Source of the DNA: an uncultured virus (IMG/VR IMGVR_UViG_3300029309_000012)
Lineage: Duplodnaviria > Heunggongvirae > Uroviricota > Caudoviricetes
Virus record (IMG/VR): IMGVR_UViG_3300029309_000012
DNA: 20,000 nt
Direction: 5' to 3' (one strand)
Part shown: positions 177-20,000 of the stretch, piece after piece
Numbering within the stretch: the stretch's first letter is position 1
Layout of the letters: each line of letters begins with the position of its first letter
The notes under the pieces: generated by a model
What the model was told of the DNA's origin: nothing
The model's database searches: none
The model's input: the letters and a program-made list of their open reading frames with translations, nothing else
Program-made: the position numbers and the translations under genes

Positions 177-1025
177 CTAGCTCTCACGACATGTGATTTT
201 CGTGATGCCAACAGGGTCGATGGCTACAGCGCCAGCCGAGAACATCGAAGCAACCAGGAAGCTGGTTTTTTCCGGGATGTAATCGACGCGGCTTTGCGCG
301 TTCATGTTGATACCAAGACCCATAGCGTCACGATGGAACGCATAGACGATGCGGTCAGATGAACCGTCGATAGCCAGTCCGCCTTCATCCCTGTCGCCAA
401 CCTGGACAAACCGGAAGCCGAGGAAGGTGTTACCACCTGTCATGTCTCCAGTTACCAAGGCTTTGACAGTGTTGAAATCGGAACTGGTGACTTCGGTTTC
501 AGCCAGCAAACCATCCATGTTATTGGCATGGGCAACGATGACACGGCCTTCAGCAGGGACGTTTGCCGCGTCCATTGCCTTCTTAGCGGCACGAAGTTTC
601 GCCACGTTGAGGTTTGTGTTGGAACCACCGACTGAGTTGGCAACAGTCTGTGTGCCAGAACTTGCCACCAGCGCATCAATAACCACCTGGTCCATCCGAC
701 GACCAATAGCGCCAGCAACAACCTGGACCAGTTCTGCACGGTCCTGGAAGTTCACTTTTGCCTGGTTGAAGATGTCCGAGTATTCAGCAGCGATGTAGTC
801 TTCCATCGTCGCTGTTACCTGGGAGTAGGTTACCGACATAGGGGTCACATCGGTTTGGGGCACACGGATGCTTGCCGTGCCTTTCCCGATCTTCGGGAAT
901 TTTACGGTTGAGCCCTCGACAGTGCGTTCACGGGTGAGACCAGCCAGGGCACGTTGACCCTGGTATGCTTGCTTCACCTCACTGTCGAAGAGGGTCACAA
1001 ACGCATTGCTGATAGATACAGCCAT
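177..1025 (-). CDS. Major capsid protein (282 aa)
   Basis: MAVSISNAFVTLFDSEVKQAYQ..., FPKIGKG, IGRRMDQVVIDAL, FLGFRF: typical podovirus HK97-fold capsid. AAGGAG RBS at 1033-1038 supports ATG 1025. Follows scaffold and portal. Confidence 0.92.
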   Translation of the reverse strand: MAVSISNAFVTLFDSEVKQAYQGQRALAGLTRERTVEGSTVKFPKIGKGTASIRVPQTDVTPMSVTYSQVTATMEDYIAAEYSDIFNQAKVNFQDRAELVQVVAGAIGRRMDQVVIDALVASSGTQTVANSVGGSNTNLNVAKLRAAKKAMDAANVPAEGRVIVAHANNMDGLLAETEVTSSDFNTVKALVTGDMTGGNTFLGFRFVQVGDRDEGGLAIDGSSDRIVYAFHRDAMGLGINMNAQSRVDYIPEKTSFLVASMFSAGAVAIDPVGITKITCRES

Positions 1026-1068
1026 TTGCTTGCTCCTTCGCAAATCAAAGATAGAGGTTTACATCGCA

Positions 1069-1128
1069 ACGGTTGTCCTGGCCGGGCCGTGTATAGCGAG
1101 AACTGGCCGCAAAAAACGGTTGTCAGTT
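1069..1128 (-). promoter_or_regulatory. Structured capsid 5' UTR: two hairpins sharing a C/ACAA internal loop
   Basis: Hairpin 1 (1128-1101) AACUG-ACAA-CCGU-UUUUU-GCGG-C-CAGUU; hairpin 2 (1090-1069) ACGG-C-CC-GGCCA-GG-ACAA-CCGU. Confidence 0.6.
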
Positions 1129-1174
1129 GGGCAAACTATAACCTCACGGGGTTACGCTTACAACTGACAACCGT
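1116..1174. repeat. Perfect 14-bp inverted repeat flanking the capsid promoter
   Basis: ACGGTTGTCAGTTG (1116-1129) is the exact reverse complement of CAACTGACAACCGT (1161-1174); followed by a U run on the minus strand. Confidence 0.9.
1135..1163 (-). promoter_or_regulatory. Sigma70-type promoter for the capsid gene
   Basis: Minus strand TTGTAA (1163-1158) - 17 nt - TATAGT (1140-1135). Confidence 0.7.
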
Positions 1175-1193
1175 ATGGTTTGCCTATTGGAGA

Positions 1194-1214
1194 GAAGCCC
1201 AGGGCTTCCTTTTT
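1194..1214. terminator. Small GC-rich hairpin after the scaffold stop
   Basis: GAAGCCC-A-GGGCTTC (1194-1208), followed by CTTTTT on the plus strand. Confidence 0.45.
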
Positions 1215-2040
1215 ATGCCACGTTCTCCATGAATTGTTGCTCAACCCACTGCGTATAGGCCATGTCTTTGCCATAACGCGGGTCAGCCACAAGCTGCTGG
1301 AGTTCGTTGATAGACTTCTGAGCCCCTTCCTGGATTTCGATGGCGGGGATCGGAGCCTCATTGTATGACTGCCTGATCTTGTTCATGGCAGTGATGAAGC
1401 TGGCGTCTGTCGAAGCGTTGGCCATAGCGTTAATCTCAGCATCGTTGAGAACATTGCTTTGAGCAAACTTCATCAGCCACTGCTCTGTTTCAGCGATGAT
1501 CTTGTCAGCCCGTGGCCCCAGCTTTGCCTTCTGCTCTGCAATGGTCTCCTGGGTCTGCGCTTCCATCTCGCCAGCAGATGCCAGGTAGACTTCAGCAATC
1601 TCATTGAAAGCGTCCTGGCTAATGCCGTGCTTCTTGGCTATTTCGAGATAGCCTGTAAGCATGGGGTCGTCGCTTTCGATGCCGGCGTCAGTCATGATGT
1701 CCATAGCGTATTCGCCATCTTTCGGGGCCTTGTGTAGGCCCTGGGACATCTTTGTGCGGAGTTCCTTGTAGTCACGTTTGACTGTGGCCAGTTCTTCAAA
1801 TGCCTTCTCGACATCGGGCCCGTCAGTCTCAGACCAGAGTTCCGGCGGAATCCACTCAGGTCGATCACCCCAATCAATGGGCTCTTCATCTGCCTCATCT
1901 GTCTCCAGGTGGGGCATAGCCTCTGGCTCTGTCACCTGTTCTTCTTGTGGGGCGTTAAGGTTGAGGAGGGTTTGCTGCTCCTGGTTATCGCTCTGCGGCT
2001 CTTCCGAGTTATCGCTCACGGCCAGTTCATCTTGGTTCAT
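1213..2040 (-). CDS. Capsid scaffolding (assembly) protein
   Basis: Highly acidic and helical 275 aa with RPEWIP motif and C-terminal DPRY...Y; lies between portal and capsid. Confidence 0.82.
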   Translation of the reverse strand: MNQDELAVSDNSEEPQSDNQEQQTLLNLNAPQEEQVTEPEAMPHLETDEADEEPIDWGDRPEWIPPELWSETDGPDVEKAFEELATVKRDYKELRTKMSQGLHKAPKDGEYAMDIMTDAGIESDDPMLTGYLEIAKKHGISQDAFNEIAEVYLASAGEMEAQTQETIAEQKAKLGPRADKIIAETEQWLMKFAQSNVLNDAEINAMANASTDASFITAMNKIRQSYNEAPIPAIEIQEGAQKSINELQQLVADPRYGKDMAYTQWVEQQFMENVA

Positions 2041-5394: not shown

Positions 5395-6938
5395 ACCGAG
5401 AACTCAGTCTTGGCCACGGCTTGCTGGAACACCCCGCGGCTAGGGCCCCTGGTCATCCGCCGATGCTCACCAGCCCCAAGCAGCAGATAGCCAAACGCAT
5501 CGCCAACGTGGCTGCTGTCATTCTTATTGGGCATGTCCCGGAACCTGTCAGTCCCGCCACTGATCCCAACCCTCTTGAAGTGATAGCCACCCGCCAGGGC
5601 CTTCCTCAAGCGGCTGCAACGGGCATTGACCCGCAGACCAGGCTTACCGTCCACAAGCCGCAACATAGGCGCTGCACCAGCCTCACGCCGCACCTGGAAG
5701 TCATTTGACGCCGTAGGCTGGGCCGTCAGTCCAATCGTCCGCAAATGATCAAAAGCCGTGACCTCAAATATCTCATCACGCTTCATGCCGGCCGGATCGC
5801 CCCAGACCTTCACCTCAGACTTCGGATACTTCATGTTCAACTCATAGAGCAGCATCTGGCCAAACCGCTCCAGGCCCATATCCTCAGTCACAATCTCATC
5901 CAGGATGTGCCACTTGCCAGACATAAACCGCTGGCCAATCACCGCCGCAGGGGTCAAGCCAAAGTCCAAACCAACATGGATCGGCAGCGACAGATCAACG
6001 CCCAGGTCATCATCGACCATGATCGTGTCCTCATACTCATGCCAGACCGGCTTGCCCTCTTTGACATACACATACTTGCCGCCGACATAGCACTCAATCC
6101 AGTCCAACTCCTTGTCGCCAATCTGCTGCTCATAATAACCCTGCGGCAAATTCTTGATGTTCTCAGCCCTGGCATTGTTCACCCACCACCGGCCGGCACC
6201 CGGCATCGCATCAACATCCGTACTGACACTCTCAATCATGCCAGGCGGCTGCTTGTAGAAGTTCCACTTGTACTTGCCCTTGACCCTCTCCTTCTCAGAC
6301 AAGCGATGCCACCAGTGGTCCGAATCCATCGGATTGGTGTCAGCCCATATCCCGCGCCAGGGACAACCACCATGGCCCCTGGTAGGATAACGCCCGACAC
6401 GATGAGTAAGCCCCTGGACGATACTGAGCGGCAGTTCCCTGGCCTCGTTCACCCAGGCCCCTGATAATTCTAGAGAAAGCAATTTCCGTATATCTTTAGG
6501 CTGATCCAACGCCAGGAAGATCACCTCACAATCAATCCCCGCAGCATCTCCCCTGGCCGGCAACTTGATATGATGCGTCAAAGGTGGGCTCCAACGCATT
6601 GGCCCAAATGTATGTTCCGGGAAAAGTTCAAGCCAGGTCTTGATCGTCGTCGTCCGCAACTCAGGATAACTGTTCCTGACCACAACAAAGCGGCTGTACC
6701 TGACCCCATCCTTCGGCGAGACCGGCTGCTTCACCGCCCGGAGCATCACCTCCGCGGCACAAGCATACGACTTGCCAGAGCCAACAGGCCCCATCAAACC
6801 CCGAAAGAAAGCATCATCACTCAGGAACTTCCACACCGTAGGGCTGGTGCTGAAATCCAAATCCAAGCCACCAAAGGCACCATCAGCATCAACACGACGC
6901 CGGCTAGACCTATCACTCGCCGCTCTTGTCCTCGCCAT
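5388..6938 (-). CDS. terL: Terminase large subunit
   Basis: Walker A GPVGSGKS, Walker B region AWVNEARE, coupling motif DTNP, nuclease GLDFG and SHVGDA. GAGGAG RBS supports ATG 6938. Confidence 0.95.
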   Translation of the reverse strand: MARTRAASDRSSRRRVDADGAFGGLDLDFSTSPTVWKFLSDDAFFRGLMGPVGSGKSYACAAEVMLRAVKQPVSPKDGVRYSRFVVVRNSYPELRTTTIKTWLELFPEHTFGPMRWSPPLTHHIKLPARGDAAGIDCEVIFLALDQPKDIRKLLSLELSGAWVNEARELPLSIVQGLTHRVGRYPTRGHGGCPWRGIWADTNPMDSDHWWHRLSEKERVKGKYKWNFYKQPPGMIESVSTDVDAMPGAGRWWVNNARAENIKNLPQGYYEQQIGDKELDWIECYVGGKYVYVKEGKPVWHEYEDTIMVDDDLGVDLSLPIHVGLDFGLTPAAVIGQRFMSGKWHILDEIVTEDMGLERFGQMLLYELNMKYPKSEVKVWGDPAGMKRDEIFEVTAFDHLRTIGLTAQPTASNDFQVRREAGAAPMLRLVDGKPGLRVNARCSRLRKALAGGYHFKRVGISGGTDRFRDMPNKNDSSHVGDAFGYLLLGAGEHRRMTRGPSRGVFQQAVAKTEFSVW

Positions 6939-11021: not shown

Positions 11022-11057
11022 AAAAGAATGGGGCGGAGAGCGTGAACCCCCCGCCCC
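11022..11057 (-). terminator. Intrinsic terminator or attenuator between the SSB-like gene and primase
   Basis: Minus strand GGGGCGGGGGG-TTCACG-CTCTCCGCCCC-ATTCTTTT: 11-bp stem with G.U pairs and a U-rich tail. Confidence 0.7.
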
Positions 11058-19797: not shown

Positions 19798-19867
19798 CAA
19801 AACTCTCCTCAGTCTATCTAATAGCCAAGTCATTCTATTGGCCTTTGTAAATTAGTGCCAAAAAAAA

Positions 19868-20000
19868 TCACTCAGCGTCCGCGATGGTCAACTCACCGGC
19901 TGCGACCTGTTTTATTATTTCGTCGTAGTGGCGGTTGCCGGTTGCGCCGTTCTTCACAGTATACGTCTTGCCATCAATGACGAATTTGATGTGAGTGTTG
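19868..20000 (-). CDS. 3' end of a tail-fibre-associated small protein (partial)
   Basis: ...GNRHYDEIIKQVAAGELTIADAE*; this C-terminal pattern is common after tail fibre genes in marine phages (recalled, not searched). Confidence 0.65.
   Translation of the reverse strand, partial: NTHIKFVIDGKTYTVKNGATGNRHYDEIIKQVAAGELTIADAE

Follow-up and report, generated by a model that had tools for sequence, protein, structure and literature searches.

A predicted double-hairpin RNA leader at the capsid promoter of an uncultured Caudoviricetes virus

Introduction

In the uncultured virus IMGVR_UViG_3300029309_000012 (Caudoviricetes) a gap of 187 nt separates the stop codon of a scaffold-position open reading frame (ORF; 1215–1213) from the start codon of the major capsid gene (1025). 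This gap raises the question of how the capsid transcript begins and what becomes of RNA arriving from the gene upstream. The window analyzed here is the whole stretch of 20,000 nucleotides, corresponding to bases 13973–33972 of the 34,395-bp virus record, which is rated 98% complete. Coordinates refer to the plus strand of the window; genes and RNA lie on the minus strand, which is the sense strand of the RNA. The phages concerned are related to those of the MEP301 and HTVC010P type, and nearly all information on them comes from metagenomes.

A preliminary description of the gap had proposed a promoter inside an inverted repeat, together with an RNA fold that depends on which promoter made the transcript and that could set the capsid:scaffold stoichiometry. 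The sequence elements it listed all lie at the positions given, and its interpretation finds partial support. We read the gap as a transcription-unit boundary composed of a promoter, a conserved double-hairpin leader and a lineage-specific terminator, and assign this reading as a whole a probability of roughly 60%. Sequence features, conservation, covariation and predicted energies were computed, whereas the start of the transcript, its termination and all functional roles are inferred. A capsid-protein scan of viral contigs confirmed 591 relatives, the best 80 of which were used for the comparisons; single relatives are given by their handles (L001, L002 and so on) where needed.

Results and Discussion

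The predicted fold of the first ~65 nt of the capsid transcript (~1128 to 1064) consists of two adjacent hairpins with one base between them. Hairpin 1 (1101–1128, minus strand) is built from the helix P1 (1128–1124 paired with 1105–1101), an ACAA strand (1123–1120) opposite the single C1106, and the helix H1 (1119–1117 with 1109–1107). In hairpin 2 (1064–1099, minus strand) the outer stem (1090–1087/1072–1069) is joined to the inner stem (1085–1084/1078–1077) by the single unpaired C1086 on one side and the internal loop ACAA (1076–1073) on the other; the apical loop comprises 1083–1079, and a tentative helix P2 (1099–1096/1067–1064) closes the base. Both hairpins share an asymmetric internal loop, 5′-G-NYAA-C opposite 5′-G-C-C, in permuted orientation, the apical loop closing the CCG/CGG side in hairpin 1 and the GG/CC side in hairpin 2. 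Read from the 5′ end, the elements of hairpin 1 follow each other as P1, NYAA, H1, apical loop, H1′, single C and P1′, those of hairpin 2 as outer stem, single C, inner stem, apical loop, inner return, NYAA and outer return. With a MAFFT alignment of 26 leaders and without structural input, RNAalifold yields exactly this two-hairpin core, and the minimum free energy (MFE) structure of 1128–1060 is the proposed one plus P2 at the base of hairpin 2, at −13.9 kcal mol−1. The two C/ACAA hairpins of the preliminary description were thus recovered independently. The repeat GACAACCGU, said there to occur twice in the leader, does so on the minus (sense) strand, at 1116–1124 and 1069–1077.

Compensatory changes support both hairpins. 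The 46 distinct sequences aligned for hairpin 1 were trimmed by reference to sequence anchors, not to pairing. Pair 7–29 occurs as CG in 20, GC in 18 and UA in 8 sequences, pair 14–25 as CG in 31 and UA in 15, and in neither case is the pair ever open; pair 15–24 is found as GC (21), CG (15), GU (2), UA (1) and UG (1), with 6 sequences unpaired. The resulting covariation score of 0.395 compares with 0.158 ± 0.016 in shuffled data, where none of 500 shuffles reached it, and partners slid along the alignment gave at most 0.144. For hairpin 2, covered by 36 distinct sequences, pair 12–33 is GC in 26, CG in 6, AU in 3 and GU in 1, without an unpaired case, and the score of 0.214 was again reached by none of 500 shuffles (0.112). 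These alignments point to a conserved, selected element whose pairs are kept by compensatory changes, a candidate for a new structured RNA family. The Rfam 15 covariance models gave no match at E ≤ 10 on either strand of 900–1400.

The boxB hairpin of lambda and P22 carries a GACAA-type pentaloop, and the letters GACAA are found in both boxes of the leader as well. A local tetraloop or boxB-like hairpin of the form NGG-AYAA-CCN on the boxes was considered and rejected. In the L047-type clade box 2 reads CGG-AUAA-CGG and cannot form such a hairpin, while the long-range partner covaries; in this respect the leader differs from boxB. The linker between the hairpins of this clade (e.g. L047:1189–1299) holds two extra hairpins. 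One of these, GCGCG-GCCAYAA-CGCGC, has a 7-nt loop that resembles a collapsed third copy of the GCC/AYAA motif.

Helix P2 is to be regarded as tentative. It recurs at one position in three clades, with three sequences (UCGC/GCGA; ACCUG/CAGGU; ACUGGC/GCUAGU or ACUUGC/GCGAGU). Taken singly, P2 beats shuffles at p ≤ 0.05 in just 3 of 50 leaders; it is missing in L033, L038 and L043, and L034 offers only a 4-bp helix at a different place. Directly after P2 a start codon is followed by a stop codon (AUG-UAA, 1059–1064, minus strand; AUG-UGA in L001), an arrangement that lacks a ribosome site and is not shared by the L011-type clade. A short, A-rich element with ACC at its end (1054–1060, minus strand; UAAACCU, GAAACCU or UUUACCC) lies ~12–15 nt past hairpin 2 and is conserved in most clades, even in phage SI2 (GAAACCUUG); in folding it showed no measurable pairing with the ribosome site.

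Of 75 upstream regions of at least 200 nt, 73 contain both G-NYAA-C boxes, one of them ~90–125 nt and the other ~41–57 nt ahead of the start codon. The leader is conserved down to ~60% capsid identity, although the sequence that separates and surrounds the boxes varies. L046 and L002 are the exceptions, the upstream half of the latter being unrelated sequence. In this 3.5-kb contig (L002:1–210) the 5′ half of the leader and the promoter are swapped for GC-rich sequence with the junction inside hairpin 1, which reflects either a rearrangement or a chimeric assembly.

A covariance model of both hairpins (R1) scores 70.5 bits at 1056–1132 (minus strand), the next best site in the 34.4-kb genome reaching 14.4 bits. 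The hairpin 1 model R2 gives 30.8 bits at the leader as its sole significant match in the genome, and neither of these models nor the single-hairpin model R3 located a further copy there, so that the leader is single-copy. The second site of R1 (6354–6410, plus strand; E = 0.011) is antisense within the large terminase gene and contains the hairpin-1-like motif CCAGG-GACAA-CCA...UGG-C-CCCUGG; with R2 it scores 10.3 bits (E = 1.7), and it is probably due to chance. Among 81 sources R1 recovers 42 leaders. Those left out have a longer inter-hairpin linker with extra hairpins or are cut by a contig end, and were taken into the single-hairpin alignments.

Among more distant relatives from a genome collection, R2 detects L098 (27.5 bits) and L090 (17.4 bits), and R3 detects L087 and L090 (24.1 bits each) as well as L091 (16.4 bits). 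By eye, H1 is UCG/CGA in L090, next to a 7-bp P1, and CCC/GGG in L098; in L091 it is GC/GC with a GAAA loop, and the outer stem there is CUAG/CUAG. The 12 capsid relatives in this collection are contigs of metagenome-assembled genomes (MAGs) with discordant taxon labels, which give no basis for naming a host. Three of them (L087, L088 and L092), at 31–34 kb, have the size of whole phages, and their MAGs carry the labels Opitutae, Polynucleobacter and Flavobacteriaceae. Since these contigs resemble phage genomes that ended up in the bins, the labels are not evidence of a host. In the cultured phages MEP301, SI2, Vibrio phage 121E34-1 and HTVC010P, R1 found no match in the capsid leader. A hairpin-2-like stem (GG-C-CCAGA ... 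UCUGG-CAUA-CC) can be seen in MEP301 by eye only, no model detecting it.

Where this leader begins is indicated by the promoter. As the preliminary description had stated, TTGTAA-N17-TATAGT is present inside the inverted repeat at 1163–1135 (minus strand), with the −35 hexamer TTGTAA at 1158–1163 and the −10 hexamer TATAGT at 1135–1140. It has 9 of 12 matches and a spacing within the 16–18 nt of the sigma-70 type. The −10 hexamer ends 10 nt before G1124. The same distance is kept among the relatives: in 40 of 50 distinct upstream regions a −10-like hexamer (TATAGT, TATATT, TATAAT or TATTTT, taken from the best −35/−10 pair per region) ends exactly 10 nt before the box-1 G that precedes NYAA. 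Assuming a start ~7 nt after the −10 hexamer, the capsid transcript would begin at ~1128/1127, in agreement with the start near 1128 proposed before. Hairpin 1 then begins at the predicted start, with the first base of P1, and would be the 5′-terminal hairpin of the message. Public metatranscriptome contigs from three studies end at 1118 (X1), 1101 (X2) and 1100 (X3), and contigs of none of four public RNA runs cover 1121–1440. Since assembled contigs cannot show ends and an uncovered stretch proves nothing, the contig ends near 1118–1100 give, at best, a faint indication of a 5′ boundary.

The second part of the reading concerns RNA that reads through from the scaffold-position gene. The perfect 14-bp inverted repeat noted before is present: its arms (1116–1129 and 1161–1174) comprise 14 nt each, are 100% complementary and lie 31 nt apart. 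It is the longest perfect inverted repeat of the window (loop ≤60 nt), and a repeat of at least 14 nt arose in 1 of 100 dinucleotide shuffles. On the sense strand the upstream arm (ACGGUUGUCAGUUG in RNA; 1161–1174, minus strand) precedes the promoter elements, and the downstream arm (1116–1129, minus strand) is made up of the 5′ strands of P1 and H1 in hairpin 1 together with the ACAA loop between them. The U run that had been reported after the repeat is a U6 directly 3′ of the downstream arm (1111–1116, minus strand).

In read-through RNA the MFE structure is a long extended hairpin (1109–1183, minus strand). From the outside inwards it comprises pairs between an A tract and a U tract (1183–1179/1113–1109), the repeat stem of 13–14 bp, two inner helices of 6 bp and an apical loop of 6 nt, and both promoter hexamers lie inside it. 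The stem thus amounts to 13 + 6 + 6 bp (~25 bp) with interruptions of 2 nt and 1 nt. For 1186–1108 an energy of −36.4 kcal mol−1 was calculated in comparison to −6.5 kcal mol−1 for hairpin 1, in line with the earlier proposal that read-through RNA may form a long stem. In a 196-nt context the same hairpin has z = −2.88, with 1 of 200 shuffles as stable. The earlier suggestion of a crossing pairing between GGCAAAC and GTTTGCC has a counterpart in the window itself, where these letters belong to an 11-nt, 91% complementary repeat (1130–1140/1174–1184) and give 7 bp (32 of 500 shuffles as long). It is not conserved, however: the 8 other distinct members of the sub-clade have 3–5 bp there, a length equalled by 297 to 500 of 500 shuffles.

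The long hairpin has the features of an intrinsic terminator, a stable, GC-containing stem-loop on the sense strand with a U-rich tract immediately 3′ of it. In relatives this tract is U7, U6, UUUAUU or UUUAAUUU, and only UUU in L007. Similar to intrinsic terminators at operon boundaries, the stem-loop and U run follow a stop codon and an A tract pairs with the U tract. Unlike these, the stem is unusually long, both hexamers of the following promoter (−35 and −10) lie within it, and its 3′ arm and its U run recur in the first hairpin of the next transcript, where they serve as 5′ strand and apical loop, respectively. The U6 would accordingly play two roles, as terminator tail in read-through RNA and as apical loop of hairpin 1 in RNA started at the promoter.

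Within the sub-clade of the window the long hairpin is the MFE fold in 7 of 9 distinct members, whose inner-helix sequences differ. The substitutions in the arms of L001 and L003 are four distinct transitions, all giving G·U pairs in the sense RNA. Such wobble-only changes favor a sense-strand RNA stem over a DNA palindrome, though four events are few. These observations also bear on the possibility that the repeat is a recent, neutral inverted duplication without function and that the leader alone is under selection. Its restriction to one sub-clade and its decay in L005 and L006 would fit a neutral origin, but the repeat is kept in the 7 members, the differing inner helices still pair, the arm changes are compatible with wobble pairing, and a terminator stands at the corresponding position in a sister clade. 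We regard a neutral duplication as quite unlikely.

A different proposal starts from the exact copies of GACAACCGT at 1069–1077 (minus strand), 1116–1124 (minus strand) and 1166–1174 (plus strand). Three exact 9-mers, two direct and one inverted, fall within 106 bp around the promoter and occur nowhere else in the 20 kb, as might be expected of DNA operators for a phage or host regulator; the inverted repeat would then be a palindromic operator pair around the promoter and RNA folding incidental. However, the strands opposite the boxes covary with them, which is not required of a DNA site, and the box sequences vary between clades with pairing kept. Further, the arm changes that form G·U pairs in sense RNA would amount to A·C mismatches in a cruciform or on the opposite strand, and the upstream copy is absent from most relatives. 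An operator function of this kind appears very unlikely.

The long stem could also serve mainly as a processing site of the RNase III type that splits scaffold and capsid messages and gives them separate stabilities. The length requirement of this double-strand-specific nuclease, about two turns of double-stranded RNA, is well established, and ~25 nearly continuous base pairs with two small interruptions are long enough for it. On the other hand, the U6 right after the stem and the extension by A-tract/U-tract pairs are features of intrinsic terminators, and a plain terminator takes the same place in the sister clade. Processing as the main role is hence judged unlikely, and termination is the preferred interpretation of the stem.

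The comparison with this sister clade (L011-type) shows how the boundary is made elsewhere. In 12 of 18 distinct regions an ordinary GC hairpin with a T run ends 34–47 nt before box 1, a position at the upstream edge of the promoter or slightly farther upstream. Closure of the upstream unit immediately ahead of the capsid promoter thus seems to be common, not universal, and the lineage of the window would use a copy of the leader's own start for this purpose.

Combining these results, we propose the following mechanism. A host-type (sigma-70-like) promoter at 1163–1135 would start the capsid or late transcript at ~1128/1127, and its first ~65 nt (1128–1064) would fold into the double hairpin. 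At the 5′ end of the late mRNA this structure could serve as a recognition platform for a protein or for RNA polymerase, controlling stability, translation or elongation of the late operon. The sub-clade of the window has, in addition, an inverted copy of the first 14–20 nt of the leader upstream of the promoter. In RNA coming from the scaffold gene this copy would pair with the 5′ half of hairpin 1 to give the ~25-bp hairpin ending in U6, an intrinsic terminator and possibly a substrate of RNase III, which would end the upstream unit. The long hairpin and hairpin 1 would be mutually exclusive; RNA whose start lies within the repeat does not carry the upstream arm and would form the leader fold instead.

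Several results weigh against this reading or narrow it. The support is wholly computational, the 5′ and 3′ ends of the transcripts being predicted. Promoter matches of the given quality are at chance level when taken alone (7 in the window in comparison to 10.5 ± 3.4 in shuffles). The 110-nt leader with the start codon is no more stable than shuffled sequences (z = +0.91; 163 of 200 as good), and its MFE structure is a different one. The covarying pairs differ mostly between clades, so that few independent events underlie them and relatedness inflates the counts. The upstream arm is decayed in L005 and L006, where hairpin 1 is the MFE structure even in the read-through context, and it is absent from other clades; in the L047-type clade no terminator was found by the same criteria. 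Insulation from upstream transcription is therefore not universal. The upstream arm occurs only in the closest sub-clade, in 7 of its 9 distinct members. The promoter-dependent fold, like the arm that the preliminary description expected to be conserved in relatives, is therefore a feature of the lineage and does not belong to the conserved element. Concerning function, shuffling the structured part of the leader leaves the predicted accessibility of the ribosome site unchanged (mean unpaired probability 0.40 native, 0.41 shuffled; 49 leaders, partition-function folding), and a switch that masks the ribosome site is not supported for this reason. In the late block downstream, the minus strand has no intrinsic terminator above 7 pairs; the terminator-like sites there have 5–7 pairs, and Rho-dependent sites are unpredictable.

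What the leader might do can be narrowed by its structure. The conserved internal loops are present twice, which points to specific recognition rather than mere stability. In our ranking of the candidates, a protein-binding platform at the 5′ end acting on stability or translation would come first, followed by a polymerase-binding RNA of the put type and then by a riboswitch. Known 5′ stabilizer hairpins and phage translational operators include the ompA 5′ stem-loop, the operators of T4 gene 32 and regA, and the autoregulation of the P22 scaffold. Similar to these, the leader would have a hairpin starting with the first transcribed nucleotides of a strongly expressed message, and it repeats conserved loop motifs that suggest a protein site; in contrast to them, its ribosome site is outside the structure, which ends ~25 nt of A/U-rich sequence before the Shine–Dalgarno motif (1039–1034). 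We know of no counterpart of the NYAA/C internal loop in two permuted copies among these hairpins and operators.

The put RNAs of phage HK022 are the closest to the polymerase-binding alternative. In the sections of the review PMC8632103 considered here, put sites are described as double-hairpin elements of ~65 nt that are needed for read-through of intrinsic and Rho-dependent terminators. Like putL and putR, as far as those sections describe them, the leader of the window is ~65 nt long, is predicted to fold as a double hairpin, is promoter-proximal and belongs to a phage transcribed by the host polymerase (PMC8632103). As a put-like processive antiterminator, the nascent double hairpin would bind host RNA polymerase and allow the late block of ~15 kb to be read through Rho-dependent and intrinsic terminators; the upstream terminator might additionally pass only polymerases with a correctly folded leader. 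A double hairpin of ~65–69 nt with helices one base apart directly downstream of a promoter fits such a role, as does its position at the beginning of a long operon of closely packed genes. In HK022, however, R1 finds no match in sequence or structure, the best score being 10 bits (E = 0.26) inside a tail gene, and the intrinsic-type scan of the late block on the minus strand located no site above 7 pairs that would have to be overcome. Architecture alone being weak evidence, we consider a put-like antiterminator doubtful.

Two similar aptamer halves would also be conceivable as a ligand-sensing riboswitch, for which tandem, similar and conserved internal loops in a 5′ leader could be cited. 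No riboswitch family of Rfam matches at 900–1400 (E ≤ 10), and no expression platform is predicted, as the ribosome site is ~25 nt away with unchanged accessibility and no terminator follows the leader. A riboswitch is hardly to be expected here.

The most far-reaching interpretation of the double hairpin is a new class of cis-acting RNA that docks on the host polymerase or binds a dimeric phage or host protein and thereby switches on the late operon, coupled in the lineage of the window to a terminator formed with its own 5′ half. We hold this to be improbable at present. If it is true, an abundant group of aquatic podoviruses would control late genes by RNA, and in the lineage of the window only transcripts from the internal promoter would be licensed. 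Apart from its mode of action, the leader combines clear covariation, a fixed distance to the promoter and one copy per genome, and is a well-defined putative control element of ~190 bp that can be cloned. It would mark where the late transcript begins and provides a model for locating that start in other contigs, and it offers a defined test case for a choice of fold that depends on the origin of the transcript.

Fremin et al. reported candidate RNAs from IMG/VR data upstream of T7-type capsid genes, which in the parts of that publication compared here are DNAVirus_3706, _5397, _231, _3823 and _3864 (PMC10690425, 2023). Similar to the leader, these candidates come from data on uncultured aquatic Caudoviricetes and precede major capsid genes. 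According to the same parts, the catalogue covers motifs within 25 nt of the start codon, unlike the core of the leader, which ends ~38 nt upstream (PMC10690425). Compared by description and not by alignment, the leader may already be among these five candidates. Literature searches on capsid-associated RNA motifs and on HK022 put RNA brought up no description of the leader, and we make no wider claim that it is unpublished.

In the left part of the window every long ORF is on the minus strand. The portal gene (3823–2282, minus strand) was assigned by phrog_332 (E = 1.9e-83) and is followed by an ORF of 82 aa (minus strand), listed between it and the scaffold-position ORF of 275 aa (2040–1213, minus strand). 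The latter has no PHROG match and is named by its position in the portal–capsid interval, as in MEP301; its stop codon TAA occupies 1213–1215 (minus strand). The major capsid gene (177–1025, minus strand; phrog_3437, E = 4e-48) is preceded by the Shine–Dalgarno sequence AAGGAG (1034–1039, minus strand), 8 nt ahead of its start codon. It is the first gene of the late block, ~15 kb of tightly packed minus-strand genes. In the phage collection, Methylophilales phage MEP301 was the sole match by DNA comparison. The isolates closest in capsid protein are MEP301 (64%), SI2 (48%), Vibrio podoviruses (~35%) and pelagiphages of the HTVC010P type (~30%).

Just 3′ of the scaffold stop codon the MFE structure contains a small GC hairpin (1193–1209, minus strand), whose sense-strand tail, UCUCUCC, makes a poor U tract. 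The hairpin is terminator-like on the plus strand only (1194–1208, followed by CTTTTTATGC), antisense to all nearby genes, and may halt antisense transcription or be a weak sense terminator. The strongest terminator-like site of the window is located at 11030–11057 (minus strand), where a 12-bp stem with 9 GC pairs is followed by ATTCTTTTGG; it lies between the ORF 11590–11066 and the primase/helicase gene, overlapping the listed TTG start of that gene. The best promoter-like site (19832–19861, minus strand; TTGGCA-N18-TAGAAT, 10 of 12 matches) lies near the right end of the window. Just upstream of it a weak hairpin-1-like match is found at 19893–19946 (11.9 bits, E = 0.63), and the site itself may be an early promoter.

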